DNA of 64,000 nt from Candidatus Hermodarchaeota archaeon (GTDB lineage Archaea; Asgardarchaeota; Hermodarchaeia; Hermodarchaeales; Hermodarchaeaceae). The stretch's first letter is position 1, and every line of letters starts with the position of its first letter. The position numbers were made by a program, and so were the translations under genes. Below the pieces are notes generated by a model that was given only the letters and a program-made list of their open reading frames with translations, had not been told where the DNA came from and did not search any database. Location: the NCBI GenBank assembly GCA_016840065.1, contig JAEOTB010000010.1:12342-76341 (forward strand), read 5' to 3'. Shown piece by piece: positions 20,009 through 46,307 of the stretch.

Positions 20009-20086
20009 CGCTAATCACCCACTCACTACTAGTAGTTTTCTGACAGATTAATGTCTTTCTGGCATGGTAAATTATCCCTAAATTAA

Positions 20087-20503: not shown

Positions 20504-20628
20504 TTCAGTTATAGGAAAACTAGAGCTTCGCAGATTAATCACCTGCACCAGGATTAGAATCAGATTTAGAAGAGAGCCCAAAGGCTAAAAACATAGGCGT
20601 TATATTTCGAATGTGGAAGCGATAGTCT

Positions 20629-29449: not shown

Positions 29450-30208
29450 ATGTCTACTCTTCGATGCCCTCAATGCCACCATAGAGTCCATCCACAGGAT
29501 CCGACTTGTGGGTTCTGTGGCTTTAGGTTTAGATATGATCGGTTTGAGCGGGTTCTTCCCTTTATGCGGAGACCAGAACGTCGCTGGCAGGGACGGCTTT
29601 CACTAAGGCAACGTTTGTGGTCGACACTAACTGTTCCAAGCATCGCTTTCTGGGACATCGCCCGGGACCCTGACAGAGCCGGACCGTTTCTAATATTCCT
29701 TGGAAACATTCTCTCCATATCTCTCTTTTACCTCCTGATAATAATGAAGACCACTAGTACTGCGAGTCTTCTCTATGGCTTTTTAGGGGTCTTCCTGATA
29801 TATTCTCTTCTTCATCTGGTCTACAATCTACTCTTCTACGGTATAATACACATCATTATCCGTCTTTCAGGAAGGAAGGGGCCGTTCGGGGACACATTCA
29901 TCCTTGGTCAATACTCTGCATTGCCTCTGCTGCTCGCTAATCTACTATCACTAGTAGTTCTGGCAATGTTTCTACCTTCTGTTCCAGTTTCAGAATTAAT
30001 GTTCATAGTCTATCCTTACCAGTCTATCTGGCTTGTTTTCTGGATTCTCACAGCCATAGCCTCACTGTGGGGAGCAGTTCTCCTGGCATTGGGAATTCGT
30101 GAGCGCTATCATATGTCAACCAGTTTAGCATTCATGGCTACATTCACGGTAACGGTGATAGTTGTAATGCTAGGAATATTTGCCAGACTTTCATTGCCGA
30201 TTATTTAA
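29450..30208 (+). CDS. Multi-pass membrane protein with an N-terminal zinc ribbon (Yip1-domain-like)
   Basis: CPQCHHRVHPQDPTCGFCG, followed by about five hydrophobic helices. The topology and N-terminal cytosolic segment resemble the Yip1 family. Confidence 0.5.
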   Translation: MSTLRCPQCHHRVHPQDPTCGFCGFRFRYDRFERVLPFMRRPERRWQGRLSLRQRLWSTLTVPSIAFWDIARDPDRAGPFLIFLGNILSISLFYLLIIMKTTSTASLLYGFLGVFLIYSLLHLVYNLLFYGIIHIIIRLSGRKGPFGDTFILGQYSALPLLLANLLSLVVLAMFLPSVPVSELMFIVYPYQSIWLVFWILTAIASLWGAVLLALGIRERYHMSTSLAFMATFTVTVIVVMLGIFARLSLPII

Positions 30209-31280
30209 TGAGAACAAGAAGCTTTAGGGGTTGAGCGAGGCTCTTATCATTAATGAAAATTGGCTCCTTCTTCTTCACGCGCATTCGCCCGAGAATCTGG
30301 TCGTCGGATAATATTCGTCCCCGGAACATAATCTTGGGGGCTAATAGCCCAAAGGTCATGATGAGCCTGTTCTTCAACTCGGTTACGGATTCACCTCGAC
30401 CAACCGTGAATATCTCACCTTTTATCCGGAACCGATCACTGCAAAGAAAACAATTTGGATTCAAAGCTAACTTGAGAGTGGTGAATCTCTGGTAGAGGCC
30501 ATCATAGAAAAGGAAATTATCAAGGGCTTTACCAATACCCAGCAAATGCTTAAGCGCTTCTTGAAACTGAATACCAGCGATGACAGTAGCCACACTCAAT
30601 AACGCAGGAAACTTGGGAGGCGGCTCCTCAGTCTTACGACGCTGACCTGGTGGAGTGCAAGCCTTCTGTAAACGCTCTTGAGGGATGAGGGGCTGACATT
30701 CTAAGCAGGGAGTCTGAAACGGAATAACCCGTTGCACATTTCCCCACCACCCAAACATACCTCCATGGATTAGTGGTTTCTTTTTTTGTACGCAGAGGGA
30801 GTTGAGCCAGCGGCGTGCTTCGAAGTTGTCAAGCCCATCTACAATGAGGTCTACTTCGTCCCAGATGGTGTGGGGGACCTGCTGGATGGCTCTGTTTAGT
30901 GAGAGGACTTGGACATCAGGGTTTGCTGCTCGGAGTCTTTGGCCTGCTATAACCGCCTTTGGTTCTCCAATATCTTGGTCAGTGTAAAGGAATTGTCGGC
31001 TCAGATTAGACATTTCAATTGTATCGTAGTCAACAACTACTACTTTTCCTATCCCTGTAAGAACAAGATCAAGTGCAGTTATGGTACCTAGTGCGCCAAC
31101 ACCAGCCACGAGCACAGAGGAACGTGCCAGTTTTTCCTGATCCCAACCATCCATCAAGAGTTGCCTTGCATATCGATCAAATGTATGATAGATAGGTGGG
31201 CGCTTTTCCTCTGGCTTTGCTTGTTCTACCACAGCTAAGACCTCTGTATTTGGTCCCATCCAGCATGACGGCGTATCCAT
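30201..31280 (-). CDS. Ubiquitin-activating enzyme E1-like (ThiF/MoeB fold) with a C-terminal extension
   Basis: VLVAGVGALGTITALDLVLTGIGKVVVVDYDTIEMSNLSRQ nucleotide-binding motif, two CxxC pairs (CLEC, CFLC), and a roughly 85-aa tail. The start overlaps the 3' end of the E2 gene. Confidence 0.85.
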   Translation of the reverse strand: MDTPSCWMGPNTEVLAVVEQAKPEEKRPPIYHTFDRYARQLLMDGWDQEKLARSSVLVAGVGALGTITALDLVLTGIGKVVVVDYDTIEMSNLSRQFLYTDQDIGEPKAVIAGQRLRAANPDVQVLSLNRAIQQVPHTIWDEVDLIVDGLDNFEARRWLNSLCVQKKKPLIHGGMFGWWGNVQRVIPFQTPCLECQPLIPQERLQKACTPPGQRRKTEEPPPKFPALLSVATVIAGIQFQEALKHLLGIGKALDNFLFYDGLYQRFTTLKLALNPNCFLCSDRFRIKGEIFTVGRGESVTELKNRLIMTFGLLAPKIMFRGRILSDDQILGRMRVKKKEPIFINDKSLAQPLKLLVLIK

Positions 31281-31696
31281 TCACGGACGGTTCGTTCAAA
31301 CTGCGCTGGGTTCTGTTTGACTTGGCGTGCAGCACTCTGATTTAGCGGGTCATCGGGGTTAGGGAAGTTCAAGAGATTACGCAAGGTTTCAACGAGACCA
31401 GTTAGTGAAGTGCTAGGTAACCAATCCTTTCCTATAATCCCAACACACACTCGTCCCCTATGAATGTTAGGGTGCCATATCTTGGTTACGAATCGAACCT
31501 TTGGCGGCTCATATGGGAACGCTCGAGGAACTATAATCTGAATTACAAAGACTCCTCCGTCGTAAACCCCAGTACCAAGGATGAAGCCCTGCCAGCGTCT
31601 AAGATCGCCATTGATTGGCTGGAATGAGGGCTCCTCAGTTTCCATGCTCTTCGCTTCTAGGGCAAGCCTTGCCCAAAAGTCCTCTTCTGATAGCAT
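31235..31696 (-). CDS. Ubiquitin-conjugating enzyme E2 (UBC fold)
   Basis: IWHPNIHRGRVCVGIIGKDWLPS matches the HPN...C active-site block of UBC enzymes. Confidence 0.85.
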   Translation of the reverse strand: MLSEEDFWARLALEAKSMETEEPSFQPINGDLRRWQGFILGTGVYDGGVFVIQIIVPRAFPYEPPKVRFVTKIWHPNIHRGRVCVGIIGKDWLPSTSLTGLVETLRNLLNFPNPDDPLNQSAARQVKQNPAQFERTVREWIRRHAGWDQIQRS

Positions 31697-31892
31697 ATAT
31701 GATACGCCTCGGTGGGAAAAACGTTCCCTGACTCAGAGATTTGTCATCTGCCTTGAATATTTTTTCGGTATAAAAATATATATTTCGGACGAAATTGCCC
31801 TCGTCTATCATAAATTTAGCATAACTTCTCGATAGAGTTGCATAATAAAGGGAGGGAGTGGCGCCCGTGAGGTGCACCATTCCTAAAGAACC

Positions 31893-32129
31893 TCAGCCAC
31901 CTTCAGTTCGAGTGATGAGGTACAAAACATCCGAGTGTGTTATTCCTTCTCCCTTTATGGTCTGTTCATCGTTCATCTGATGACCACGGTAGCTTAGAAC
32001 GACGATGTTCGGAGGGATGCGTCGCATCTGAGCAACCTTCCGTCGGATTTCGCCGATCGTAGTGTTCGGTTCAACCTCTAGGAAGACTGAATCGCCACCA
32101 CCGATTGCAGGTCGGATTTCAATACGCAT
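31893..32129 (-). CDS. Ubiquitin-like beta-grasp modifier ending in Gly-Gly
   Basis: 78 aa. LEVEPNTTIGEIRRKV..IPP...L.Y.G.Q..DEQT...LYLITRTEGG-stop aligns by eye with the ubiquitin blocks LEVEPSDTI / IPP / LRLRGG. Confidence 0.85.
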   Translation of the reverse strand: MRIEIRPAIGGGDSVFLEVEPNTTIGEIRRKVAQMRRIPPNIVVLSYRGHQMNDEQTIKGEGITHSDVLYLITRTEGG

Positions 32130-32138
32130 TTTAACTAC

Positions 32139-32384
32139 TCACCTTTTGACGGGTTTCAATTTTCTCAATGGGATGCGCGAACGACAAATCGGGCAGACTC
32201 CTTTGACCTTCACCCATTCAGCGAGGTGGCCGTAATGGGCGGGGTTTCCGCATTTCGGACAGAACACTTTGGTCTGTCCTTCGCGAATCGGTAATCCACA
32301 GACGCTGCATTGTTGCTGAGGAGTGGTCCAATCCCACGTCCCAATTTCTTTGATACGTGTGATTACGAATCTATCCTCAGTCAT
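32139..32384 (-). CDS. RING/PHD-like cross-brace zinc-finger protein (putative E3)
   Basis: 81 aa with ligand pattern C-x2-C-x12-C-x2-C-x4-H-x2-H-x10-C-x2-C. Its stop lies 9 nt upstream of the ubiquitin-like gene start. Confidence 0.7.
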   Translation of the reverse strand: MTEDRFVITRIKEIGTWDWTTPQQQCSVCGLPIREGQTKVFCPKCGNPAHYGHLAEWVKVKGVCPICRSRIPLRKLKPVKR

Positions 32385-32548
32385 TGTAGCATTCCTTGTC
32401 GTTTTCGCTTGGCTCCTCTACTAAGCGCGTTAATAAAAATCTATGCAACTAGAGCTGATTAATTGTAGATACTTGTGGAGTGATTAATCAAAGCTTTTAA
32501 GGCTGGTGTGAGTTACCTTGAACGTGCGCTTCAGGGGCGGATAATGCT

Positions 32549-33076
32549 TTGTCAGAGGCACCAAAGTTTAAAATTGAGATTGAAGCAATTAAGACACCCA
32601 AAGGATTAGTGCCTACTGTTGAATCTCTGAGGCGAATAGTCAAAGCGCTCAATGTACTTGACGCAGATTTTAATCGGATGAATCTTAAAATGGAGGCAAA
32701 TATTCGTGCGCTCCTTCGGGAGGTAAAAACACTACAGAAGCTAGTGGCTGACGACACAATAGCCTCCGAGTCATCTGTGGAGAGACTTGGCATCCTTGTT
32801 GAAAGAATGGATTCGCTAGAGAAGAACTTGAGAAAACGAAAGGCAGCACCTGCTGACGACTCTACAGCCGCATCTTTGAAGGCACTAAAGCGGGAGATCA
32901 CTCCTACTCTTACAAAGGCTGCTAAGCGTTTGGAGGAAACAATGGCGCTCTTTGAACGACGTCTTGACGAGTTTCTCCGCGAACTTAAGAGTAGTATACT
33001 TCTTGCAGTTCGCCAAGCCACTTCTACATCTTCTTCTCCAAAGTCTACTTCAAGAAGGCGCTCTGGAAGGAGCTAA
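32549..33076 (+). CDS. Hypothetical coiled-coil protein at the head of the ESCRT-I-like operon
   Basis: 175-aa helical ORF with a TTG start and an S/T/R-rich tail. It is co-oriented with the UEV gene 75 nt downstream. The antisense 174-aa ORF looks like a shadow. Confidence 0.45.
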   Translation: MSEAPKFKIEIEAIKTPKGLVPTVESLRRIVKALNVLDADFNRMNLKMEANIRALLREVKTLQKLVADDTIASESSVERLGILVERMDSLEKNLRKRKAAPADDSTAASLKALKREITPTLTKAAKRLEETMALFERRLDEFLRELKSSILLAVRQATSTSSSPKSTSRRRSGRS

Positions 33077-33150
33077 ACTCGAATTGTTGCATCCCTTGCT
33101 AAAGATTAAATTCCCGCTCTCCCTAACATGATTCGAACACAAACGTCACG

Positions 33151-33918
33151 GTGAGTTTTATGGCACAAGCAGTGCGAAGGAAAACAGAAATGGCGATTGC
33201 TCGCGAAGCCCAGTTGATGTTCCGCAGGGCCCCAACATTCGCTCCTGTAGGCAACAATCTGCGTCGATGGCGCGGAAAAATTAAGGGTGGTCCACGTGGT
33301 AGAAAGGAATTCCTCGTTGAAATCATTGTGCCACCCAACTTCCCGGCTCAGCCGCCAGTTGCTCGCATGTTGACGCCAACGAAACATCCTCGAGTAGATA
33401 GTGAATCTGGTGCTATTCATTTACGAATCGTAACTCAATGGCAGCCTCATTATCACATCTACCAAGTTGTAAACAGTATCAAGGGCCTCTTTGCTAGAGA
33501 ACCTCCAAAAGTGGATGAAACCCAAGAACCTCCAGAGGTTGAGATGCCTGAAAGCGAAGAACTTCTGCAACGACGGTATCAAAGACTGGAACGAGAAGTC
33601 TCTCAACTCACTAGGAAGATTCAGGAACGTGATGAGCAGATTGCTCGGTTGTCTGCTCAAAGAGACACACATCGAATTCCAGTGAGTGAAGCATCAGGTG
33701 AAGAAGAAATCGATGCACTAATCCTACCAAGTGATCCAATGGAACGTCAAAAACTTGAGCTAGAGAGTGAAAGGCTAGCCATTGAAGATTTGCTACAAAA
33801 CTTAGAGGAGAAGTTTGAAAACGCTGAAATTACAGCCACAGAGTATACCAAGCTCTACAAGCGGTACAAGCGTCGTCTCTACCAAATCGAGAAAGCTCTT
33901 CAGGAGCTAGGTAAATAG
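33151..33918 (+). CDS. UEV-domain protein (Vps23/Tsg101-like ESCRT-I subunit) with a coiled-coil stalk
   Basis: UBC-like fold (RRWRGKIKGGPRGRKEFLVEIIVPPNFPAQPP...KHPRV) but no catalytic Cys after the HP motif. The C-terminal half is coiled coil. ATG 33160, preceded by GGTGA, may be the true start. Confidence 0.75.
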   Translation: MSFMAQAVRRKTEMAIAREAQLMFRRAPTFAPVGNNLRRWRGKIKGGPRGRKEFLVEIIVPPNFPAQPPVARMLTPTKHPRVDSESGAIHLRIVTQWQPHYHIYQVVNSIKGLFAREPPKVDETQEPPEVEMPESEELLQRRYQRLEREVSQLTRKIQERDEQIARLSAQRDTHRIPVSEASGEEEIDALILPSDPMERQKLELESERLAIEDLLQNLEEKFENAEITATEYTKLYKRYKRRLYQIEKALQELGK

Positions 33919-33941
33919 AATAAAGGCTGAGGCGAGATTCC

Positions 33942-34583
33942 ATGGCTGTACGAGAACGGCGGCGCGAGCGAAGGCGGGTCCAAGAACTAAAAGCAGATTT
34001 GTACGGGAGCATTGCAACCCTCGATAGCATCGTGAGGAAGTTCGAAGAGGGTGATCTGAACCCCACACTCTACAAGCGTCAACTCCGCTCTTTGGTTCGA
34101 GACACAATAACAGCACGGCAGCTGCTTGAGGCAGAGGGCTCCAGTTGGGAAGAGTTTCTACTCGAGGAACACATTACGGAAAGATTTCCCGAAGCCTCTG
34201 GAAAACTTCAGATTGCAGAACAGGCTCCTCAAGGAGAAACGCCTGAAGAATTTACGGGTCAAACTTCTGCCAAAATGGCAGCAAAAGCAGCGGACATTGT
34301 CTCTGACATAATAACCCTAATTGATATCGCCAAGCTTGGTGATGTCGCTAGGATGGATCTAATAGTTCCCTTACTTGATGATGCGATTATTCTACTCACG
34401 AAATACCCGAATTTTCCTCCTGATTACTGGATTCTCGTTGCAATAAAAGAGTGGAGGGATAGGCTTCAACAGCGAGACCCGCGTGACAAACTCTCACCTG
34501 AAGAGGCGAAACATCTAGAATTCCAGTCGATACGCTGGTTGAATGATTTCAAAAGACGTCTCCGGGAGATGGCTACCGAGTAA
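33942..34583 (+). CDS. Vps28-like ESCRT-I subunit
   Basis: N-terminal LYGSIATLDSIVRKFEEGDL..YKRQLRSL resembles the Vps28 core. C-terminal IITLIDIAKLGDVARMDLIVPLLDD...EWRDRL...LSPEEAKHLEFQ resembles the Vps28 CTD blocks (FITLMDALKL / DQLHPLL / ..L.E.Q.R.LLFD). Confidence 0.8.
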   Translation: MAVRERRRERRRVQELKADLYGSIATLDSIVRKFEEGDLNPTLYKRQLRSLVRDTITARQLLEAEGSSWEEFLLEEHITERFPEASGKLQIAEQAPQGETPEEFTGQTSAKMAAKAADIVSDIITLIDIAKLGDVARMDLIVPLLDDAIILLTKYPNFPPDYWILVAIKEWRDRLQQRDPRDKLSPEEAKHLEFQSIRWLNDFKRRLREMATE

Positions 34584-34601
34584 TCATGTCGAGGCCGATA
34601 G

Positions 34602-34898
34602 TTGATGAAGGGTTCGGCGTGGTCATATGCAGAGATGCGGGAGCGGCTGGTGAACGTTATAAACAAAGCCAACCTACAAATCAATGCCGAGTATGTCCTT
34701 GAGGACCTCGATGTCGTTGTTGCCTTCGCTCAAGCGATGCTAGGTGAAAATCACCACATTACAAACGAGGCACAAGAATGGTATGCGTATTTCTGGGATA
34801 AGTATCGATACAACCTAGAACAACATGTAGAGGAAAATGAGGCGCGGCGTTTTGCAATGTGCGCAGAGATGTGGCTGAATCATATTCGTCGAATTTAG
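34602..34898 (+). CDS. Hypothetical 98-aa helical protein inside the ESCRT-I/II operon
   Basis: ORF between Vps28 and Vps22. Its stop overlaps the AGGAGG ribosome-binding site of the next gene. No recognisable motif. Confidence 0.4.
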   Translation: MMKGSAWSYAEMRERLVNVINKANLQINAEYVLEDLDVVVAFAQAMLGENHHITNEAQEWYAYFWDKYRYNLEQHVEENEARRFAMCAEMWLNHIRRI

Positions 34899-34910
34899 GA
34901 GGAATTAGGT

Positions 34911-35648
34911 GTGTGTGGGCTTCATGAAATAGAAAAACGGGTGGAGATGGATGCCGCTTACCGGCGGAAACGTGCAAAGCTTATGCTCAAAGAACTGGAA
35001 CATATGCTCCAAACCGTAGCAGAACTCGGTAGCCAAGCAGAAAACTTCGAAAAATCTTACGGAGAAATCCTGGAAGATATGCCAGAACTTGGCGAAAAGG
35101 TTGCAGCAATTGCCCGGGAACTTGGGATAGCTCTACCTAGTGTTTCTACACCCACTGAAGTTGAAGATAAGCCAGGGCTGTTTGAGCGCATCACAGGACG
35201 TGGGCGTTTTTACGAACAGCTAGGATTACAGATACTTGATTTAGCTAAAAGGCGGAGGAGCGAAACAGGCGGAATTATGACTCTGGCTGAAGTCGTAATT
35301 CTAGTGAATAAACGTCGCCGTCACAACGTTTCACAAGTTGATGTAGCACGTGCTATCCACCATCTTACCAGTGCTAAACTGATTCCTGGGCTTCACAAAC
35401 TCAAGTCCGGTATAAAAATCGTCGAGTTTGTACCCCGTGAATTTACTGAAGACCAAGTCATCGTGCTTTCCCTTGCCAGCCGAACTGGCTTTACAACACT
35501 TGAAGATGTTATGACTCAAACCCGATGGAACAGAGAACGTGCACTCGCAGCACTTCAAAGCCTCAAAGAATCTGGCGCTGCGAAACTTGACGAATCATAT
35601 GCTCATGGAACGCGGTACTTCTTCCCTGGGCTAACTCCTTCGGCATAA
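34911..35648 (+). CDS. Vps22/Snf8-like ESCRT-II subunit (EAP30 domain)
   Basis: FYEQLGLQILDLAKRRRSETGGIMTLAEVV...VSQVDVARAIHHL parallels the EAP30 block FY.ELGVQI.E.C......NGG...L.EL.....DD..RAI..L. GTG start 8 nt after AGGAGG. Confidence 0.8.
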   Translation: MCGLHEIEKRVEMDAAYRRKRAKLMLKELEHMLQTVAELGSQAENFEKSYGEILEDMPELGEKVAAIARELGIALPSVSTPTEVEDKPGLFERITGRGRFYEQLGLQILDLAKRRRSETGGIMTLAEVVILVNKRRRHNVSQVDVARAIHHLTSAKLIPGLHKLKSGIKIVEFVPREFTEDQVIVLSLASRTGFTTLEDVMTQTRWNRERALAALQSLKESGAAKLDESYAHGTRYFFPGLTPSA

Positions 35649-35697
35649 AAAAGACTCTACTAGAGAGTTTTATCCAACACCAAATTCATTAAGCGTT

Positions 35698-36435
35698 CTA
35701 AATTTTTATTTCGAGAACTTCCTGTTCCTTGTCTAGCCAGCGGGCCCTCTTCTGTTTCACAAGAATGTCAAGGATTTCGCGTAGTTCAGACTTTGGAAGG
35801 CTTTCTAGATCATCACGGTGCTCTTTTAGCTTGAATAACGTAAATGTTGTACGTCCAGTCTCTAATGCCCAACGGTGAATCTCGTCTGCCCACTCCTCGT
35901 CTGTCTTCCAGAAAACACGGATTATTCCCTCCGCTTCATCAATCCAGCGACCTAATTCCTGTTTCACAAGACTCCCAAGTATGAATCTGACGGCACGCTG
36001 ACGGTCAGAACGAATATCATTGAAGGGGCTAAGCATTACTAGCCTACGAGTGGAGACAATATGTAGGAGGACTTCCCTGCAGAAATCAAGTGTGAATCCT
36101 GCCCATTCAGCGCTCCACTGTTCAATGTCTCCTTCTGAACTGGGAATCGCGAACATGAAAGCATAGCGACCTCGCTTTGCAATCCAGACATATCTTGATT
36201 TGAGTTGTTTTACTGCTAGTCTCGCAAGCTCCTCAACACTTCTCTCTTCTTCCTCTTCAACAGGGAGTACAAGAACCGCAGCCTCTTCCTCTGGTTCATC
36301 CTCTTCTTCAGTTGAACGGCTAGTCTCTTGTTCTGCCTTTTCAAGGACCTGGATGTACTCCTCCTCGCTGAGGTGTACTGGTTTGGGTTTATCCTCCTTC
36401 TCCCTTGAACGCCTTCTTGGCTTCTCCTTGACCAA
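35698..36435 (-). CDS. Vps25-like ESCRT-II subunit with an acidic N-terminal extension
   Basis: RVFWKTDEEWADEIHRWALETGRTTFTLFKL matches the Vps25 C-terminal block (WR.PEEW...I..W....G....V.TLYEL). Starts 14 nt downstream of the Vps4 stop on the same strand. Confidence 0.7.
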   Translation of the reverse strand: MVKEKPRRRSREKEDKPKPVHLSEEEYIQVLEKAEQETSRSTEEEDEPEEEAAVLVLPVEEEEERSVEELARLAVKQLKSRYVWIAKRGRYAFMFAIPSSEGDIEQWSAEWAGFTLDFCREVLLHIVSTRRLVMLSPFNDIRSDRQRAVRFILGSLVKQELGRWIDEAEGIIRVFWKTDEEWADEIHRWALETGRTTFTLFKLKEHRDDLESLPKSELREILDILVKQKRARWLDKEQEVLEIKI

Positions 36436-36449
36436 TATTCATCCCCTTT

Positions 36450-37613
36450 CTATGAGCCGTGCTTCTCTTCCCATTCTTTATACTTCTGTAATTCTTCCGG
36501 TGTTATTGTAGTATGAATGTGGCTCAAACTCTCAACAAAATCCTTCTGAGTGACAGGTCTAACTGGTTTCTCCTTATCTCGGATGTCTCCTGTGAGATCC
36601 AGTTCACGAATCGGTTCAAGAGAAGCCTCCCGGCAAATATGGGCAATATCTGAACCGGCATAACCCTCAGTCATATTTCCTAACTGTTCAAAATCCACAT
36701 CACTATCTAACTCGATGCCCCTCGTGTGTATCTCAAAAATCCGTACACGAGCATCTTGCTCGGGTGTGGGAACATAAATACGCCGCTCAAAACGACGACG
36801 AAAAGCAGGATCGATATCCCAGGGCCGGTTTGTTGCGCCTAATACAACTACTCTGTCTCCCTTCCGGCTCTTCATACCATCAATTTCAACAAGGAATTGA
36901 GTCTTCAGACGCCGCTCTCCACCCACTTGATCACTACCCCGCTCAGCTGTTAAAGCATCAACTTCATCTAGAAAAACAATAGATGGCTGAGAATTCCTTG
37001 CAGCAGTAAAAAGCTGCTTAACCAGCCTTTCCGATTCTCCCAACCACTTAGAAACAAGCGACCCGGCGTCCGCGTTGAAGAAGGTGGCCTCTGTTTCATT
37101 AGCTACGGCTTTAGCAATCAAGGTTTTTCCGCAGCCTGGAGGTCCGAAGAGCAATACTCCTCTCCAAGGTCGGCGCGCTCCAGTGAATAAATCCGGACGG
37201 AGGATTGGTAGAATAATGGCTTCGCGTAAAGCTTGCTTTGCTTCTTCTAGATTCGCCACATCATCCCATTTCACACTGGGTTTCTCTCGAACAACCAAGC
37301 TCGCAATATCATCCTGCAACTCCGAATCTGGACCCTCAACCTCTGTATCCCCAATATCGGGGCCAGAACCCCCTACTCTAACACGCCCACTCCTTAGTAA
37401 TTTCGCCCGGGCAATATACTGCTCTGCCCTCTCCAAGGCAATAATACGCATCTTAGGCATCCTAGAAATCCTTGCTGCCTTGGCAAGAATATCAGCAGCT
37501 TCGATGTAAATGGAAGCAGCCTCTGATCGCTTCCCCGCTCTATCGTATTCAGCTGCCTTCCCCGCTTTTTCTTCAGCGATTCTCATAAGGTATTGTGCAC
37601 TGCTCAACTCCAA
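36450..37613 (-). CDS. vps4: Vps4-type AAA+ ATPase with an N-terminal MIT domain
   Basis: MIT-like helices (AGKAAEYDRAGKRSEAASIYIEAADILAKA), Walker A GPPGCGKT, Walker B IVFLDEVD, and the C-terminal helix typical of Vps4. Start is TTG 37613 or ATG at codon 10. Confidence 0.95.
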   Translation of the reverse strand: MELSSAQYLMRIAEEKAGKAAEYDRAGKRSEAASIYIEAADILAKAARISRMPKMRIIALERAEQYIARAKLLRSGRVRVGGSGPDIGDTEVEGPDSELQDDIASLVVREKPSVKWDDVANLEEAKQALREAIILPILRPDLFTGARRPWRGVLLFGPPGCGKTLIAKAVANETEATFFNADAGSLVSKWLGESERLVKQLFTAARNSQPSIVFLDEVDALTAERGSDQVGGERRLKTQFLVEIDGMKSRKGDRVVVLGATNRPWDIDPAFRRRFERRIYVPTPEQDARVRIFEIHTRGIELDSDVDFEQLGNMTEGYAGSDIAHICREASLEPIRELDLTGDIRDKEKPVRPVTQKDFVESLSHIHTTITPEELQKYKEWEEKHGS

Positions 37614-37684
37614 TCAACCTACCAGACAGGTCACAAGCCACTAGTAATAAAACGCCTTCTTTAAGATATTGTGCGCTGCTCAAC
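37587..37684. repeat. 22-nt direct repeat (2 mismatches) at the Vps4 start and 76 nt upstream
   Basis: aaggtattgtgcactgctcaac (37587-37608) versus aagatattgtgcgctgctcaac (37663-37684). Both lie in or next to the divergent Vps4 / ESCRT-III spacer. Confidence 0.6.
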
Positions 37685-37846
37685 ATAGAGTCTATGCGGA
37701 ACGTAAGGGAGTAGAACCTCTCGTGCGTGTTACACGTCCCAGCAATGACAGCCATTTACAAAGACTTAATTTGTTGTATTCTAATTAACTTATGTCGAAA
37801 AGATAATAAGCCTCTCTTTAGCTGGAGGAAACTGGAAGCTAATAAA

Positions 37847-38458
37847 ATGTCAGCAATAAGACGATTTAAGCAATGGCTCGGAGGCAAGCCTTCACTCAAA
37901 CAACTTATCTTTAGACTTGATGTTTTCTGTCGGAAATTAGATTTGCAGCGGAAGATGTTAGAGAAGGAGGCTAGTAAGAGTCGTCAGAAGGCGAAGAGGT
38001 ATCGGCTTCAGGGTAACATGGATGCTGTTCGTCTTTATCTACAGCATCATTTGCGTTTTCAGAAATGGGCTCTTTCTGTTGACGCATATCGCTTACGTAT
38101 TGAAGGGTTACAAACCCAGTTACGACAGAGCGAGGCAATGGGAGACCTTGCGAAGATTCTTGGCCAGCTAAACGCTGCTTTGGGTGGATTGAAAACCCAG
38201 GTCAAGGTGCCCGAAGTTGCCCAATTGGTGGATCAGATTGAAGGGAACCTTCGACACTTTGAAATGACCCAAGAGATTGCTGATACGGGTATGGAACGTA
38301 TGTCGGTTTCAACTGAAGTTACTGATGGTGAAGTTAGCCAGGCATTAACTGATCTTGACCAAGAAATCGAAGTAGAAACTGGTACAGCACTTCCACAGCC
38401 AGAACAGCGAGTTTCACAATTAGAAGAAGAGATTAGGAGACTAAAGGAGGAAAGCTAG
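37847..38458 (+). CDS. ESCRT-III (Snf7 family) protein, tentatively Vps2/24/46-like
   Basis: Basic N-terminal helical hairpin (RKLDLQRKMLEKEASKSRQKAKRYRLQGNMDAVRLYLQ) and an acidic C-terminus ending in the amphipathic helix QLEEEIRRLKEE. Start set at ATG 37847. Confidence 0.8.
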   Translation: MSAIRRFKQWLGGKPSLKQLIFRLDVFCRKLDLQRKMLEKEASKSRQKAKRYRLQGNMDAVRLYLQHHLRFQKWALSVDAYRLRIEGLQTQLRQSEAMGDLAKILGQLNAALGGLKTQVKVPEVAQLVDQIEGNLRHFEMTQEIADTGMERMSVSTEVTDGEVSQALTDLDQEIEVETGTALPQPEQRVSQLEEEIRRLKEES

Positions 38459-39115
38459 ATGGCAAAAGGAAGATTTAGCTCTCTCTGGGAGAGACTTTTC
38501 CCAAGGAAGCCTGAGCCAAAGGAAGACACTGTAGCTCGTATTCATCGTGTCGTCGATTTACTTGAGGTTCGCGGTCGGCAATACGAGACAAAAGCAAAGG
38601 ATTCTCGGGTCAAGGCGATTCGTTATGTGAAACGCGGAGACCGGAAAGCGGCAAAGCTTCAGCTTAGGAGGCGTTCAAGATACCTCCGAAAAGCTAGACT
38701 GGTTGAACAAGAAATCGACCTAATGGAGCGAGGAGTCGAAGCAATCGAGCAAGCCAAAGGCGAAGCAGAAGTCATGGGAGCGCTTCGCGGTATCGGAGCC
38801 ACCCTCGAACAGCTACGTGAAACTGCGTCACCTGAATCTGCCCGGGAAACCATCCTAGAAACCCAAGCACTGATTGAGGAAGCAGAGTCAACAGAAGAAA
38901 TTCTTGGTCTTGGCTTAGACGACGAAGAGTTGGATGCAGATGTCGAAGCAGAGCTGGAAGACATCGAGACATTAGTCGCTCTTGAAGAAGCAGGACAACT
39001 ACCTACAGTTCCTGTAGGCGAGTCAGAGACTACAACAGGAGAACTAACGTCAGAGGAACGACGTGAGCGTACCCGCAAAGAACTTGATCGCCTTAGGAAG
39101 GAATTAGAAGAATAA
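38459..39115 (+). CDS. ESCRT-III (Snf7 family) protein, tentatively Vps20/32/60-like
   Basis: The ATG directly abuts the preceding stop. Basic hairpin (KAIRYVKRGDRKAAKLQLRRRSRYLRKA), acidic DDEELDADVEAELEDIE block, and a C-terminal RKELDRLRKELEE MIM-like helix. Confidence 0.85.
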   Translation: MAKGRFSSLWERLFPRKPEPKEDTVARIHRVVDLLEVRGRQYETKAKDSRVKAIRYVKRGDRKAAKLQLRRRSRYLRKARLVEQEIDLMERGVEAIEQAKGEAEVMGALRGIGATLEQLRETASPESARETILETQALIEEAESTEEILGLGLDDEELDADVEAELEDIETLVALEEAGQLPTVPVGESETTTGELTSEERRERTRKELDRLRKELEE

Positions 39116-39162
39116 TCGGTCGGAGCCAACCTGAATCGTCAGTCTTGTTGCCTGAGCCTTCA

Positions 39163-40659
39163 TTAAAGGAAGGATTCATCAGTTACAGAGTGTTCTCCAG
39201 TGGCTTCACTTATTCTAGTTTCAACAAGATAAAGCTCCCGGCTCAATGAACGATATTGCTTGAAGAAACTTTCGTTAGAGATTTTTCCTTCATCGAATTG
39301 CCGCTTCAATAACTTCAACGTAGCTTGGAGGCTATACTTCTGTTGCCGTAACTGAAAGATATGGTCGTGGGTGAGCGGACCCACCTTGCTTCTAGAAGGG
39401 GGGTAGAGTGTAGGTGTATGGCTTTGCGGTGAAGTAGGATGAGGGCGCCGAATCGAGGGAACTGAGGGGAGATCATTGGTAACTGCCTGATCTATTAGTT
39501 TATCTAGCGCATTGCGTAGCGCCATAATATCCACTTTCAGTTCTGTCACTCGTATAGATCCCTTTATAGTAACAAGACTGTGTTCGCTGAAATTCTGGGC
39601 TAAAGTAATGGTCTTTGAAATCTCCTGGAGTGTTTCAGAAGACCCCCGAAGCCTTAATTCCTCATCATCAGTAATGACAATAAGTCTTCGGCGGAGGCGC
39701 CCCTCCTCTCTTATACCAGTAATCGCTGGCAGAGGTAGAGAACGAATCACAGATGTGTCACGCTTAATCAAACCGGTTTGACCTAGAAACAGGAGTCGTC
39801 GGGTTGTCACGAAAAGAGTGCCTTGGCTCATCCTTTTTCCTGTCTCTGTTTTACCCAGACTGATAGAGGGAATTGCAGCAACAGCCTTTTCCTCTTCACC
39901 GATGTCAAGGTGATCAGAGTATTTAGTAAATATCGTGTGCCAGCGCTGCAGAGGTTGTAGGTCTTGTTCGATTGTCTCTAACACATCTTTTAATTCCTTA
40001 ACTAGCTCTATGCAATACGTTTCGTAATCGTCGATGTCCTCTTGGATGCCCTCTATTAGTCCTGCTAGAAGTGGAAAATCTGAAACCTGCCATTTTTCTG
40101 GATGGATGAATCTTGCTTTGCTTGCTCTGTGTCGTTCAACTATCTTTTGAGCTCGAAATAATATTCGTTCATTTACTGCTGGAATAGCTTTCGTGATAAG
40201 TTCCAGTAAATTCTTCTCTATCTCAGGATTGTGGAGAAAACCGCCTGTACGAAGCTCTCTAATCTGCCACCGTACTGTTCTCAAGCGGGTAGCAAACCCT
40301 GTTAGTAATTCATGTCCCACTCGAAGCTCATAGTAAGCTGTGCGAAATCGGCTAACTAGGTTCTGCCGCATGTTGTGTATTGGTGTCACGTTGTCTGAAT
40401 TGCAGTTAACACATAGGTTCTCACGGCGGGTTGCAAGTTGTGCTGGCTCTCCGCATTCTCTGCAAACTGTCCCCTCATCAGTTTGCTCAATGGCACTAGG
40501 ACCACACCGACTACAGGTATCGAATTCACTTACTTTGTGTCGAGAACATTTAACGCAGAAAACATAACCACAATCCATGCAGCACCGCTCAACTACACGG
40601 ATGCGGCACACGGGACACAACGAATTGTTACTTTGTGGTCCTTGTTTTGGTAGGGACAT
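39163..40659 (-). CDS. Multi-zinc-ribbon protein with a PH/GRAM-like domain and a SHOCT-like C-terminus
   Basis: The first 90 aa carry seven CxxC pairs. The central block GTLFVTTRRLLFLGQTG...LPLPAITGIREEG...LIVITDDEE resembles GRAM/GLUE/bacterial-PH beta-sandwich signatures. The C-terminal LKRQFDEGKISNESFFKQYRSL is SHOCT-like. Confidence 0.5.
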   Translation of the reverse strand: MSLPKQGPQSNNSLCPVCRIRVVERCCMDCGYVFCVKCSRHKVSEFDTCSRCGPSAIEQTDEGTVCRECGEPAQLATRRENLCVNCNSDNVTPIHNMRQNLVSRFRTAYYELRVGHELLTGFATRLRTVRWQIRELRTGGFLHNPEIEKNLLELITKAIPAVNERILFRAQKIVERHRASKARFIHPEKWQVSDFPLLAGLIEGIQEDIDDYETYCIELVKELKDVLETIEQDLQPLQRWHTIFTKYSDHLDIGEEEKAVAAIPSISLGKTETGKRMSQGTLFVTTRRLLFLGQTGLIKRDTSVIRSLPLPAITGIREEGRLRRRLIVITDDEELRLRGSSETLQEISKTITLAQNFSEHSLVTIKGSIRVTELKVDIMALRNALDKLIDQAVTNDLPSVPSIRRPHPTSPQSHTPTLYPPSRSKVGPLTHDHIFQLRQQKYSLQATLKLLKRQFDEGKISNESFFKQYRSLSRELYLVETRISEATGEHSVTDESFL

Positions 40660-42606: not shown

Positions 42607-43584
42607 ATGGAGTCCGATGGAGCACCTCACATTATTCGGGAGCTCCCTAGTTTAAAGAGCCAGATAAAACTCGGTTATACGATAAAAGGGAGCGAGGCAC
42701 ACCCTTTCAATCTCATGCTGAAGGATTTCCGTAACCTAGTAATTTTGGGTGAACATGCTAAGGATATCTACTACCTTTTCTTAAGTCAGCTCTGTGACCA
42801 ACTTCAGTTACCAATTGTAGTTCTCAAAGAAAAAAATGAAGATGACCTTGAGAGCTTGATTTGTGAGATTCCAATCTGGCATCTAGACACTGAAGTCAGT
42901 CAGTTAATCCTAAATCCATTAGATTTAGGAGACAAGGCCACACCTATTCACGCCCACATCCTAGCCAGCATACTCTCGCATACTTACAAATTATCCCTTA
43001 AAGCACAGAAGCTTCTCCAAGTTGCGATATGGAGTACCATCAAAACTAGTCCAAAGCCGTCACTCCAAGAACTTCGCCAAAGCCTTCAATATTTTGAAGA
43101 ACATGAAGCTACTCACAACGAACTACATTACTTGCTAGAGGCTCTTGACAAAGCCAACATCTTTGGTTCCTTCGACAATGTATCACTCGGTCGGTTTCAC
43201 TCTGTACCAACAATCCTCTCAGTGCCAAGAAATAGTAGAGGCCGCCTCGTAGCAAATCTACTTCTATTGAAGCTCCTTGCGGGTCAAGTTTTAGCTCTGC
43301 CCCCTCTGGTAATCTTCGATCTTCCCCTTGATACTCTTCTTATCGAATTACTCTTCAGGAGTTATGCGACTAGCGGTGATTTTCTCCTCTTTCTTGATTC
43401 AAAGGGGAGGTTCCCTCAACTAGAATCACAGATTCCCTATAATTTAATTTTCTCAGCTTTGAGTGAATCCTCCACTTTTTGCAGGCAATTATCAACAAAA
43501 GAACGTGACATTCTCCAAAGCCATCATGATTTAGTCGCTGTGAAACTATTCAACAAACCCCTACAGCTAGTAAATGTATTCTAA
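42607..43584 (+). CDS. Hypothetical protein, possibly a degenerate HerA/VirB4-like ATPase fold
   Basis: 325 aa. FRNLVILGEHAKDIYYL occupies the position where HerA-like proteins carry the Walker A loop, but no GxxGxGK[ST] is present. This is a weak, inference-only call. Confidence 0.35.
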   Translation: MESDGAPHIIRELPSLKSQIKLGYTIKGSEAHPFNLMLKDFRNLVILGEHAKDIYYLFLSQLCDQLQLPIVVLKEKNEDDLESLICEIPIWHLDTEVSQLILNPLDLGDKATPIHAHILASILSHTYKLSLKAQKLLQVAIWSTIKTSPKPSLQELRQSLQYFEEHEATHNELHYLLEALDKANIFGSFDNVSLGRFHSVPTILSVPRNSRGRLVANLLLLKLLAGQVLALPPLVIFDLPLDTLLIELLFRSYATSGDFLLFLDSKGRFPQLESQIPYNLIFSALSESSTFCRQLSTKERDILQSHHDLVAVKLFNKPLQLVNVF

Positions 43585-45914: not shown

Positions 45915-46307
45915 TTATTTAAAGAGCTTTGATATTTCTCTACCAAAATGCCTAAACACTGAAACAGTATGTCCAAGTGCTTCAATTTTAACCCCTGCGC
46001 CAATCAGAACAAGTGGCCCAGCGTCAGTAACAATGATATAGCCCTTTTCTCCCCGAACAATGAGTTCGTATAATGGATCAAATTTCAACTTGGTAGCTGC
46101 TTCGACTCCAGTCTGTAATAAGACTGCTGAAATTGCCGACATCAAGTCTGGGTCGATATCCACTCCTTTTGTTGCGCTATAGGCAACACGCCGTCCACCT
46201 TTCGTGACTGCAGCTAGGGTCTCTAACTCGGTGAATTGGGTAATCTCCCGCAGCATCAATACTAGTTGCTGTGCTTCGTTCTCGCCCATCACAAACGGTT
46301 GCAACAA
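45915..46307 (-). CDS. Roadblock/LC7 (MglB-like) domain protein
   Basis: About 125-130 aa with an alpha-beta-alpha pattern (LETLAAVTKGGRRVAYS...YIIVTDAGPLVLIGAG) typical of the Roadblock/LC7 family. Start is uncertain (TTG 46307 or ATG 46289). Confidence 0.65.
   Translation of the reverse strand: MLQPFVMGENEAQQLVLMLREITQFTELETLAAVTKGGRRVAYSATKGVDIDPDLMSAISAVLLQTGVEAATKLKFDPLYELIVRGEKGYIIVTDAGPLVLIGAGVKIEALGHTVSVFRHFGREISKLFK

Follow-up and report, generated by a model that had tools for sequence, protein, structure and literature searches.

The interval 30201-40659 very probably represents the core of a ubiquitin-ESCRT supercluster from Hermodarchaeia, an Asgard archaeal lineage, which would act along the pathway proposed below; all positions refer to the window, i.e. 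the whole 64-kb stretch of DNA analysed. The cluster is real, intact and canonical for Asgards, as documented by the presence and order of its genes, their conserved synteny, their family and domain identity, the intact catalytic motifs and signs of purifying selection. All protein-protein and protein-membrane steps, in turn, are extrapolated from what has been published for eukaryotes and for other Asgards and would apply here by analogy. The architecture, the accessory families and a Hermod cluster were already known (Hatano 2022; Lu 2023 preprint; Makarova 2024), and the finding itself is of low surprise.

Table 1. Genes of the supercluster, with window positions and the evidence for each product
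Product	Position	Strand	Evidence
E1-like ubiquitin-activating enzyme (ThiF fold)	30201..31280	-	Pfam ThiF 6.2e-64
E2 ubiquitin-conjugating enzyme, active type	31235..31696	-	Pfam UQ_con 5.5e-34
Ubiquitin-like protein, 78 aa	31893..32129	-	Pfam ubiquitin 8.2e-12
Small RING-type E3 candidate, 81 aa	32139..32384	-	zf-RING_2 2.9e-6 (27.9 vs 27.3 bits)
Conserved coiled-coil protein, 175 aa	32549..33076	+	Homologues, position, selection
UEV-Vps23 (ESCRT-I)	33151..33918	+	Pfam UQ_con 2.4e-15; Vps23_core 2.1e-7 (31.2 vs 26.8 bits)
Full-length Vps28 (ESCRT-I)	33942..34583	+	Pfam VPS28 1.3e-12 (48.3 vs 24.5 bits)
Putative stand-alone Vps28 C-terminal-domain-like protein (Vps28-CTD), 97 aa	34605..34898	+	Fold match; ORF opens with TTG at 34602
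Vps22/EAP30 (ESCRT-II), single Vps22/36-like gene	34911..35648	+	Pfam EAP30 2.5e-25 (90 vs 26.8 bits)
Vps25 (ESCRT-II)	35698..36435	-	Pfam ESCRT-II 2.8e-12 (47.4 vs 27 bits)
Vps4 AAA+ ATPase	36450..37613	-	Pfam AAA 3.9e-42, Vps4_C 3.7e-8, MIT 2.1e-6
ESCRT-IIIA (Vps2/24/46-type Snf7 family), 203 aa	37847..38458	+	Pfam Snf7 1.1e-16
ESCRT-IIIB (Vps20/32/60-type Snf7 family), 218 aa	38459..39115	+	Pfam Snf7 2.6e-17
Znr_CC_PH_SB protein, 498 aa	39163..40659	-	CxxC pairs, AF2 model, Pfam Vps23_core

Gene order and archaeal context

The 14 genes span ~10.5 kb in alternating divergent and convergent units. A minus-strand unit (E1, E2, Ub, RING) is followed by a plus-strand unit (coiled-coil protein, UEV-Vps23, Vps28, Vps28-CTD, Vps22), then by Vps4 and Vps25 on the minus strand, ESCRT-IIIA and ESCRT-IIIB on the plus strand and, last, Znr_CC_PH_SB alone on the minus strand. 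A first-pass annotation had described seven ESCRT genes at 33151-39115, and all seven ORFs are present on the strands it gave. The families it named (UEV-Vps23, Vps28, Vps22/EAP30, Vps25, Vps4 and two Snf7 proteins) all scored above the curated Pfam gathering cut-offs, with which bit scores were compared, including VPS28, EAP30 and ESCRT-II for the Vps28, Vps22 and Vps25 genes, and so did the families of the ubiquitin cassette; matches to solved ESCRT structures further back the ESCRT assignments. The directly adjacent ubiquitin cassette with E1 (ThiF), E2, GG-ended Ub and a RING protein, the 14-nt gap between the Vps4 stop (36450) and the Vps25 start (36435), and the abutting Snf7 genes (first stop at 38458, second ATG at 38459) were likewise read correctly. 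The block as delimited holds all the genes listed for it, but the system runs past both ends, and the Vps28-CTD, Znr_CC_PH_SB and coiled-coil genes had been missed. That every ESCRT subcomplex lies within 6 kb is true of ESCRT-I, -II, -III and Vps4, with ESCRT-0, Vps37 and Mvb12 excluded.

The Asgard-type architecture proposed earlier was also recovered in relatives. The nearest genomes are Hermodarchaeota MAGs (Vps4 identity 91-95%) with the same gene order, which is identical on three MAG contigs whose proteins are 86-99% identical; an equivalent architecture occurs in an Odinarchaeia contig and, according to the supplement of Makarova 2024, in Heimdall AB_125. Outside Asgards, several proteins find their best matches in eukaryotes (SNF8, VPS4B, CHMP2A/1B, E2s), which might hint that the genes are eukaryotic contaminants or were acquired from a eukaryote very recently, rather than being native to the archaeon. 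However, identity to eukaryotic proteins is low, and the genes form dense, intron-free operons with spacers of 0-23 nt and some TTG/GTG starts. Moreover, GC content is uniform (44-48% across the window), the cluster is flanked by housekeeping genes of archaeal type (LeuRS, UbiA-family prenyltransferase, family-B DNA polymerase, AspRS/SerRS), the order is shared by three independent Hermodarchaeota MAGs, and the Znr_CC_PH_SB and stand-alone Vps28-CTD families are Asgard-specific and absent from eukaryotes (Makarova 2024, PMC10936438). Operon structure, GC, flanks, MAG synteny and Asgard-only families effectively refute a eukaryotic source, to which we assign a negligible probability.

Subunits and accessory proteins

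In the ubiquitin cassette, the E1-like protein, kept at 90-92% identity in Hermod loci L003/L004, carries a weak C-terminal ubiquitin-fold match (Pfam ubiquitin 0.0057, residues 291-338). The E2 has HPN at 75 and a single Cys at 84, the ubiquitin-like protein ends in TEGG directly before the stop codon, and the RING E3 candidate has a second Pfam match (Prok-RING_1, 5.3e-6). The coiled-coil gene lies between the RING and UEV genes, divergent from RING/Ub and first in the ESCRT-I/II operon, and adjoins RING-Ub likewise in Odin L016 and Frey L010. A Pfam search gave no family for its product, which has 17 relatives in 1.8 billion representatives (those named come from Freyarchaeota/Sigynarchaeota, Odinarchaeia and Njordarchaeum), and has a conserved IKTPxGxVPT motif at its N-terminus with helices after it. 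It is probably the 'uncharacterized protein asCOG005522', matched by cluster description, as Ub, RING, asCOG005522 and UEV-Vps23 cluster in Hermod, Odin and others (Lu 2023, bioRxiv 10.1101/2023.07.25.550441).

Among the ESCRT-I genes, UEV-Vps23 consists of an E2-variant domain (~23-119), a helical stalk, PSDP at 193 and a steadiness box (191-239), and is 34% identical to the neighbouring E2. As noted in the first-pass annotation, it lacks the catalytic Cys: HPN...GxxC is altered to HPR...GAIH, His90 takes the place of the catalytic residue, and the protein contains no Cys. The Vps28 match spans profile positions 2-176 of 188, covering the N-terminal core and the C-terminal four-helix domain, and residues 116-207 match the Xenopus Vps28 CTD (2j9w, 5.6e-5). 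The gap left empty between Vps28 and Vps22 is filled by a 97-aa gene with 17 conserved homologues, all of ~97 aa. A Pfam search assigned its product to no family and the sequence link to Vps28 is weak (hhalign E 0.13, collinear EW...EA..F....WLN), while the AF2 model (pLDDT 88) has four helices and its best PDB folds are all Vps28 CTDs (2j9w, TM 0.83, rmsd 1.9 A; 2j9v, 0.75; 2g3k, 0.74), with a Foldseek E-value of only 0.018 and other helical bundles at TM <0.5. This predicted fold points to a stand-alone Vps28-CTD, and a separate Vps28_C gene (cog.004115) is known in Asgards (Makarova 2024, PMC10936438).

ESCRT-II is represented by Vps22, matched by the EAP30 profile over its full length and closer to human SNF8 (2.5e-18) than to human Vps36 (6.5e-6), and by Vps25. 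A second EAP30 or Vps25 paralogue was found nowhere in the 64-kb window, in line with the earlier remark that a separate Vps36 gene is missing. This remark and the one on the lack of a Vps20-specific gene fit Asgards generally, which have one Vps22/36-like gene nearer Vps22 and one Vps20/32/60-type ESCRT-III (Hatano 2022, PMC9192718). Residues 81-238 of Vps25 match Odin Vps25 (7pb9, 1.5e-29), human Vps25 is matched at 3.7e-9, and the tandem winged-helix domains begin at ~residue 81. Judged against these two proteins, the N-terminal extension, previously given as ~60 aa and acidic, is real and contains an acidic stretch but is ~80 aa long and basic before it turns acidic (9 K/R in residues 1-20, 21 D/E in 21-70). 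With pN/pS values of 0.13 in the extension and 0.05 in the core, the extension is under purifying selection.

Vps4 comprises MIT, a single AAA cassette and Vps4_C, the MIT match being slightly under the Pfam cut-off (28.2 vs 30 bits), and aligns collinearly over its full length with human VPS4B (1.8e-85, residues 12-343). Walker A (GPPGCGKT, 157), pore loop (KWLGE, 189) and Walker B (FLDEVD, 214) are intact, and RRRFERR is found at 272. The start codon of ESCRT-IIIA is most likely ATG 37847 rather than GTG 37727, its relatives being 203 aa long with an ATG start. Its best PDB matches are CHMP2A (7.4e-8), CHMP1B (8.4e-8) and CHMP1A, and a C-terminal helix read from the sequence (QLEEEIRRLKE) seems, by eye, to be MIM1-like. 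ESCRT-IIIB, only 24% identical to ESCRT-IIIA, has an aromatic N-terminus (MAKGRFSSLWERLF) and a possible MIM2-like motif, again assigned by eye (LPTVP at 181); it best matches an Asgard 'Vps20/32/60-like' protein (9fn1, 9.9e-13) and Heimdall ESCRT-IIIB (9ftl, 2.4e-9), with 0.06 for yeast Snf7.

The Znr_CC_PH_SB protein (family cog.011556; Makarova 2024, PMC10936438) combines three Zn ribbons, a long coiled coil, a PH/GLUE-like domain and a steadiness box. Six CxxC pairs lie in residues 15 to 86, and the AF2 model (pLDDT 81) shows strands at 24-93, helices at 94-251, a beta-sandwich at 259-355 and a helical hairpin at 429-487. The PH domain resembles human Vps36 GLUE (2hth, TMt 0.60, E 5e-4) and bacterial PH domains (0.63), while Vps23_core matches residues 433-479 (5.3e-6) at 26.8 bits, exactly the cut-off. 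With 34 homologues in Hermod- and Thor-labelled MAGs, it is a putative Asgard-specific ESCRT-I-associated subunit. It may not be obligatory, because it is absent beside ESCRT-IIIB in the close relative L003.

Some of these features could be taken as signs of a decaying remnant in which UEV, Vps25 or the small ORFs are partly non-functional or mis-called: the missing UEV Cys, the low-complexity Vps25 N-terminus, several TTG/GTG starts and two ORFs (97 and 175 aa) lacking a Pfam family. Yet UEV domains are by definition without this Cys, and its loss is expected. Furthermore, the Vps25 extension and both small genes have pN/pS values of 0.05-0.15 (0.07-0.13 for the 97-aa gene; 0.13-0.15 against Hermod MAGs for the 175-aa gene), the latter keep their lengths over at least 17 clusters, the AF2 models of Vps28-CTD and Znr_CC_PH_SB are confident, and the Vps4 motifs are preserved. 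Decay thus appears highly improbable.

Proposed pathway

In the favoured ubiquitin-directed pathway, the E1/E2/RING cascade would tag targets with GG-ended ubiquitin, which the catalytically dead UEV of Vps23 would bind; its steadiness box together with Vps28 would form ESCRT-I. Znr_CC_PH_SB possibly joins via its own steadiness box, with the PH domain as membrane anchor. The Vps28 C-terminal four-helix domain, on Vps28 or as the free copy, would contact an ESCRT-II made of a Vps22 homodimer in place of Vps22/Vps36, plus Vps25. Vps25 would then nucleate Vps20/32/60-type ESCRT-IIIB on the membrane with ESCRT-IIIA co-assembling, and Vps4, its MIT binding the putative C-terminal MIMs of ESCRT-IIIA/B, would disassemble and remodel the polymer so that the membrane is deformed or cut. 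Sorting, vesicle release, division and repair are the candidate membrane processes in Asgards. The Vps22 homodimer, the Vps23-Vps28 complex and the link of Vps25 to ESCRT-III/Vps4 have been described (Hatano 2022, PMC9192718), as have ubiquitin binding by Asgard UEV in vitro and ubiquitination of the steadiness box by an Asgard E1/E2/RING cascade (Lu 2023, 10.1101/2023.07.25.550441) and the operon logic and accessory families (Makarova 2024, PMC10936438).

It seems unlikely, though conceivable, that the locus mainly encodes a Cdv-like cell-division apparatus as in TACK archaea instead of ubiquitin-directed cargo sorting or vesicle budding, the ubiquitin linkage then being regulatory, e.g. for timed ESCRT-III degradation. 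ESCRT-III and Vps4 are the established division machine of Sulfolobales (summarised in Makarova 2024, PMC10936438), the tightest sub-cluster here is Vps4, Vps25 and ESCRT-III (also Hatano 2022, PMC9192718), and the window shows neither endomembranes nor cargo. On the other hand, no protein of the block has a CdvA match in Pfam, and the block contains Vps28, Vps22/25 and a ubiquitin-binding UEV-Vps23, which are absent from Cdv systems, and is joined to an E1/E2/RING/Ub cassette; the in vitro binding of ubiquitin by Asgard UEV (Lu 2023, 10.1101/2023.07.25.550441) also argues for the ubiquitin-directed role. Both roles could coexist.

Comparison with known ESCRT and Cdv systems

The supercluster shares the ESCRT-III (CdvB) and Vps4 (CdvC) core and the predicted MIM-MIT coupling with TACK CdvA/CdvB/CdvC, whereas ESCRT-I, ESCRT-II and the ubiquitin cassette are all absent from Cdv loci (Makarova 2024, PMC10936438). 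Homologous to yeast and human ESCRT are UEV-Vps23/TSG101, Vps28, Vps22/SNF8, Vps25, the MIT-AAA Vps4 and both Vps2/24/46-type and Vps20/32/60-type ESCRT-III, and the PxxP before the steadiness box is PSDP here and PTAP in TSG101 (Lu 2023, 10.1101/2023.07.25.550441). In contrast to the eukaryotic systems, ESCRT-0, Vps37, Mvb12 and Vps36 are lacking, there are only two ESCRT-III paralogues, Vps25 bears its charged extension, the genes are arranged in operons, and the Asgard-only Znr_CC_PH_SB, the putative free Vps28-CTD and the coiled-coil protein are added.

A close likeness also exists to the published Asgard clusters of Odinarchaeum LCB_4, Heimdall AB_125 and Hel/Hermod (PMC9192718; 10.1101/2023.07.25.550441; PMC10936438), which share the same families, co-directed UEV-Vps23, Vps28 and Vps22, Vps25 right after Vps4, a Vps24-type ESCRT-III gene with a Vps20-type one after it, only one Vps22/36-like gene, the adjacent Ub/E1/E2/RING cassette and a triple-Zn-ribbon-PH protein nearby. 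Hermod and Odin also have a coiled-coil gene of uncharacterised type lying between RING and UEV-Vps23 (Lu 2023; Odin L016 here). In Heimdall AB_125, too, Vps23/28 and Vps22 are separated by a stand-alone Vps28_C gene; only the CTD gene occupies that place there, while full-length Vps28 and the putative Vps28-CTD stand side by side here. The ESCRT-III pair and Vps4 run in divergent directions, unlike the co-directed order typical in Makarova 2024, and the Odin relative differs in a Vps28-N/steadiness-box-like segment fused to Vps22 and a Vps4 of 550 aa. These differences from other Asgard clusters are minor lineage variations.

Gene content, surroundings and origin of the cluster

That the eukaryotic machinery for membrane remodelling and ubiquitin sorting is older than eukaryotes is a view for which Asgard ESCRT/ubiquitin clusters supply central evidence. 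The window contains one such cluster in clean, intact and exceptionally compact form, with 14 genes in ~10.5 kb that cover all ESCRT subcomplexes, the ubiquitin cascade and three Asgard-specific accessories. A six-frame ORF list returned all seven ESCRT ORFs of the first-pass annotation at the coordinates claimed, along with the 14-nt spacer between Vps4 and Vps25 and the contiguous junction of the two Snf7 genes at 38458/38459. When judged against curated gathering scores, the Pfam matches of the block genes were all above the cut-off except the MIT domain of Vps4, which scored slightly below it, and the three families on which the annotation had staked its reading (Vps28, EAP30 and Vps25) were all recovered. 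Three further genes had been overlooked: a small gene in the supposed gap at 34584-34910, a coiled-coil gene upstream of UEV-Vps23 and a gene downstream of ESCRT-IIIB.

ESCRT and accessory genes of the cluster with their positions in the window
Feature	Position	Strand	Pfam matches and remarks
Coiled-coil protein, 175 aa	32549-33076	+	Conserved N-terminal IKTPxGxVPT
UEV-Vps23	33151-33918	+	UQ_con 2.4e-15, Vps23_core 2.1e-7
Vps28	33942-34583	+	VPS28 1.3e-12
Stand-alone Vps28-CTD-like protein, 97 aa	34605-34898	+	
Vps22/EAP30	34911-35648	+	EAP30 2.5e-25
Vps25	35698-36435	-	ESCRT-II/Vps25 2.8e-12
Vps4	36450-37613	-	AAA 3.9e-42, Vps4_C 3.7e-8, MIT 2.1e-6
ESCRT-IIIA (ORF as called)	37727-38458	+	Snf7 1.1e-16
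ESCRT-IIIB	38459-39115	+	Snf7 2.6e-17
Znr_CC_PH_SB, 498 aa	39163-40659	-	Immediately outside the range of the first-pass annotation

The ubiquitin cassette said to adjoin the block is indeed present, so that ESCRT-I (UEV-Vps23 and Vps28) and ESCRT-II (a single Vps22/36-like subunit and Vps25) are clustered with a ThiF-type E1, an E2 that has the HPN motif and only one Cys, a ubiquitin of 78 aa whose last residues are GG, and a RING protein of 81 aa. Transcription units of the cluster are predicted from two divergent intergenic regions, 32385-32548 and 37614-37846. The E1 (30201-31280, minus strand) has a weak ubiquitin-family match at residues 291-338 that may correspond to a C-terminal ubiquitin-fold domain as in eukaryotic E1s. 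The E1 ORF shares 46 nt with the end of the E2 gene, and its true start possibly lies downstream for this reason.

In a scan with one genome for each GTDB species, Vps4 reached 95%, 91% and 93% identity in three MAG contigs of “Candidatus Hermodarchaeota”; a Jordarchaeales contig came next at 53%. Synteny was confirmed by tblastn, with E1 to ESCRT-IIIB in identical order and orientation in the Hermodarchaeota MAGs at 86-99% identity. Eukaryotic contamination as the source of the ESCRT genes is excluded, given the archaeal housekeeping genes flanking the block and the uniform GC content, and the cluster can serve as a reliable Asgard (Hermodarchaeia) marker for the contig.

Several neighbouring genes deserve mention. 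A Yip1-domain membrane protein with an N-terminal zinc ribbon (29450-30208, plus strand; Pfam 7.1e-14) adjoins the E1 gene and may be a trafficking-related neighbour, because a Yip1 protein also occurs in the Hodarchaeia UEV-Vps23 cluster (Lu 2023, bioRxiv 10.1101/2023.07.25.550441). Further away, a Roadblock/LC7 protein (2.5e-6; 45915-46307, minus strand) lies beside a 272-aa protein without a Pfam family (46344-47162, minus strand), and the pair may belong to an Asgard operon of the Roadblock/longin-GTPase kind that Liu et al. mention. Genes for a DUF11/CLIPPER-like protein, a PCC-domain protein and a family-B DNA polymerase are located ~10 kb upstream (18242-23307), and the same three directly adjoin the trio of RING, ubiquitin and coiled-coil genes in two Freyarchaeota contigs, which suggests an older common neighbourhood that ESCRT genes moved into or out of. 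A 779-aa HerA-like ATPase (DUF87/HerA_C; 48048-50387, minus strand) and a 325-aa protein without a family (42607-43584, plus strand) seem unrelated to the cluster.

ESCRT-I, ESCRT-II and their accessory genes

The UEV domain of UEV-Vps23 shares 34% identity with the E2 encoded beside it and can be aligned with canonical E2s, whose GAIC it replaces by GAIH; there is no Cys in the whole protein, so the lack of the catalytic residue was read correctly. A steadiness box at residues 191-239 (PF09454, Vps23_core, 31.2 bits with the cut-off at 26.8) is immediately preceded by a PSDP motif, the position at which a conserved PxxP has been described (Lu 2023). Ubiquitin binding by other Asgard UEVs has been demonstrated via SPR in the same work. 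Vps28 matches PF03997 with 48.3 bits (cut-off 24.5) over profile positions 2-176 of 188, a stretch that takes in the four-helix domain at the C-terminus, and its C-terminal half matches the Xenopus Vps28 CTD (2j9w) at 5.6e-5.

The 97-aa gene that fills the supposed gap between Vps28 and Vps22 is conserved, with 17 protein clusters of which almost all are 97 aa long, and has a pN/pS of 0.07-0.13. No Pfam family was found in a scan of the protein; its AF2 model, however, is a four-helix bundle (pLDDT 88) that superposes on the Vps28 CTD 2j9w with a TM score of 0.83 and an rmsd of 1.9 A over 99 columns, and a PDB fold search ranked Vps28 CTDs highest, with 2j9v and 2g3k at ~0.75 and unrelated bundles below 0.5. 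BLASTP of the 97/98-aa ORF against Vps28 is not significant (E 0.25), and the link to Vps28 comes solely through the predicted fold; hhalign against the CTD of the window's Vps28 gave a weak match (E 0.13), collinear over helices 3-4. The modelled protein resembles a stand-alone Vps28 C-terminal domain of the cog.004115 type, and a separate Vps28_C gene beside Vps22 is a known Asgard feature (Makarova 2024, PMC10936438).

Vps22 (245 aa) matches PF04157 (EAP30) over its full length with 90 bits, is collinear with human SNF8 and far closer to it (2.5e-18) than to Vps36 (6.5e-6). An exact-sequence look-up of this protein retrieved a single 1.6-kb Logan contig without gene context. The reported absence of Vps36 holds for the 64-kb window, where a second EAP30 paralogue was sought and none, with or without the N-terminal GLUE domain of Vps36, was found. 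The Odinarchaeial Vps22 at 7309-8220 of contig L016 (303 aa) starts with a segment matching residues 9-85 of the window's Vps28 (8.9e-8), which fits the published architecture of Vps22 fused to a steadiness box.

Vps25, a tandem winged-helix ESCRT-II subunit (PF05871, 47.4 bits against 27), matches the Odinarchaeal crystal structure 7pb9 (1.5e-29, residues 81-238) and human Vps25 (3.7e-9). The N-terminal extension ascribed to it exists and is acidic, but measures ~80 residues relative to Odin and human Vps25 instead of ~60 aa, and it opens with a basic segment: K/R make up 9 of the first 20 residues, and D/E then make up 21 of residues 21-70. Judging from the sequence data, the extension is translated and under constraint, with a pN/pS of 0.13 compared to 0.05 in the winged-helix core. 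N-terminal subdomains have been noted on Asgard Vps25 before (Makarova 2024).

In the 498-aa protein encoded downstream of ESCRT-IIIB, six CxxC pairs make up three Zn ribbons. The AF2 model continues with long helices and a beta-sandwich of the PH type, and a hairpin of helices forms its C-terminus. This succession of ribbons, coiled coil, PH domain and terminal steadiness box is the one published for Znr_CC_PH_SB, and the protein is a member of that family (cog.011556; Makarova 2024). The hairpin reaches 26.8 bits against Pfam Vps23_core, exactly the cut-off, and the PH domain is similar in fold to its bacterial counterparts and to the GLUE domain of human Vps36. GLUE-like and Zn-finger modules are placed beside a system without Vps36, on a separate protein that lacks EAP30. 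By tblastn, the gene was found in two of the three Hermodarchaeota assemblies at 77-78% identity, compared to 86-99% for the other block genes, and there was no match in the third (L003), where a different 455-aa ORF adjoins ESCRT-IIIB; tblastn ruled this ORF out as the missing gene. Znr_CC_PH_SB appears to be faster-evolving and dispensable at this position.

The 175-aa coiled-coil protein (pN/pS 0.13-0.15) has homologues in Frey/Sigyn-, Odin- and Njordarchaeia. Its gene lies between the RING-ubiquitin pair and UEV-Vps23 in all Hermodarchaeota and Odinarchaeia loci examined and adjoins RING-ubiquitin in the Freyarchaeota locus. It probably corresponds to the uncharacterised asCOG005522 (WEU39992.1), which in Hermod, Odin and further lineages is described from precisely this setting alongside Ub, RING and UEV-Vps23 (Lu 2023). 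A shared steadiness box was sought by hhalign of this family against the Znr_CC_PH_SB family, which gave no signal (probability 0.4%), and a profile search of the PDB together with Pfam scans of all members yielded nothing beyond helical matches of a compositional kind (apolipoproteins, designed bundles, DUF1664), which were rejected as homology. A 265-aa protein elsewhere in the window (59857-60654, minus strand), with a C1orf109-like ribosome-biogenesis match of 26.7 bits against a Pfam cut-off of 27, is weakly similar to the coiled-coil protein (phmmer 8e-4), probably through coiled-coil composition only.

The roles of the coiled-coil protein and the duplicated Vps28 CTD are the remaining new angle of this locus. 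That the former genuinely belongs to the Asgard pathway, as a hitherto unassigned subunit or as an adaptor, or, as a second option, that the free Vps28 CTD is a separate, competing bridge to ESCRT-II, seems to us rather unlikely. As an example, the coiled-coil protein could act as an amphipathic partner that binds membranes in the manner of an apolipoprotein and links the RING E3 with ESCRT-I, and such a partner could fill an ESCRT-0 or Vps37/Mvb12 role.

Vps4, the Snf7 paralogues and the putative pathway

Vps4, encoded next to Vps25, combines MIT, a single AAA cassette and Vps4_C, is collinear with human VPS4B from residue 12 with the MIT domain included (1.8e-85), and has kept Walker A, pore loop and Walker B. 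VCP/Cdc48 ranks above Vps4 in whole-protein phmmer searches, an artefact of its two AAA cassettes; what identifies the protein as Vps4 is its single cassette in combination with MIT and Vps4_C. The Odinarchaeial homologue (L016, 9842-11494; 550 aa) gives a split tblastn match (9-165 and 164-387, ~500 nt between), which suggests a large insertion near the Walker A region, possibly an intein.

The two Snf7 paralogues are 24% identical. ESCRT-IIIA finds its best PDB matches in CHMP2A, CHMP1B (~1e-7) and CHMP1A, and ESCRT-IIIB in the Asgard “Vps20/32/60-like” 9fn1 (9.9e-13), Heimdall ESCRT-IIIB 9ftl and yeast Snf7. By reciprocal best matches to solved structures, used in place of a full phylogeny, ESCRT-IIIA is assigned to the Vps2/24/46 type and ESCRT-IIIB to the Vps20/32/60 type. 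The order is the same as the Vps24-then-Vps20 order of Heimdall AB_125. A Vps20-specific gene is missing, as had been stated, with ESCRT-IIIB as the only Vps20/32/60-type gene of the block; this is to be expected since Asgards have one gene for the entire Vps20/32/60 group (Makarova 2024). The start of ESCRT-IIIA is likely ATG 37847, which would give 203 aa as in its relatives. Read off the sequence, ESCRT-IIIB has an aromatic N-terminus and a MIM2-like LPTVP motif at residue 181, and ESCRT-IIIA ends in a MIM1-like helix; LPTVP and this helix are putative MIMs.

In the pathway that these genes probably form, targets would be ubiquitinated via E1, E2 and RING and recognised by UEV-Vps23 through their ubiquitin. 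The steadiness boxes would build the ESCRT-I headpiece with Vps28, possibly with Znr_CC_PH_SB as membrane anchor, and the Vps28 CTD would bridge to ESCRT-II, a Vps22 homodimer plus Vps25. Vps25 would then nucleate ESCRT-IIIB, ESCRT-IIIA would co-assemble, and Vps4 would remodel the assembly through MIT-MIM contacts. The inventory of genes, their intact domains, selection and synteny were seen directly, while we infer every interaction from homology and published Asgard biochemistry; the Vps23-Vps28, Vps22-Vps25, Vps25-ESCRT-III and ESCRT-III-Vps4 contacts come from other Asgards only (Hatano 2022, PMC9192718; Lu 2023). The block may also have a division-type (Cdv-like) role, which would be compatible with the ubiquitin pathway. 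However, CdvA is absent, with no match to its family in a Pfam scan that covered 18 proteins of the block and its surroundings, and the block is tied to ubiquitin.

Comparison with published Asgard clusters

The locus is a Hermodarchaeial Asgard Ub-ESCRT cluster as defined by Hatano 2022 and Makarova 2024; the finding is correct and not new, since architecture, accessories and Hermodarchaeial clustering are already in print. The statement “Hermodarchaeia ... have none” in Makarova 2024 might be taken to mean that ESCRT was unreported in this class. This is contradicted by the tree of the same paper, which includes Hermod Vps4 sequences, and by the tight Hermod Ub-ESCRT cluster explicitly shown in Lu 2023. 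Across Hatano 2022, Lu 2023 and Makarova 2024, the overall architecture, the missing Vps36 and the Vps25-Vps4 pairing have all been published, and likewise the free Vps28_C gene, the Znr_CC_PH_SB family and the uncharacterised coiled-coil neighbour. The cluster could be a convenient single-locus source for reconstitution, and the picture drawn by these three studies is left unchanged by it.
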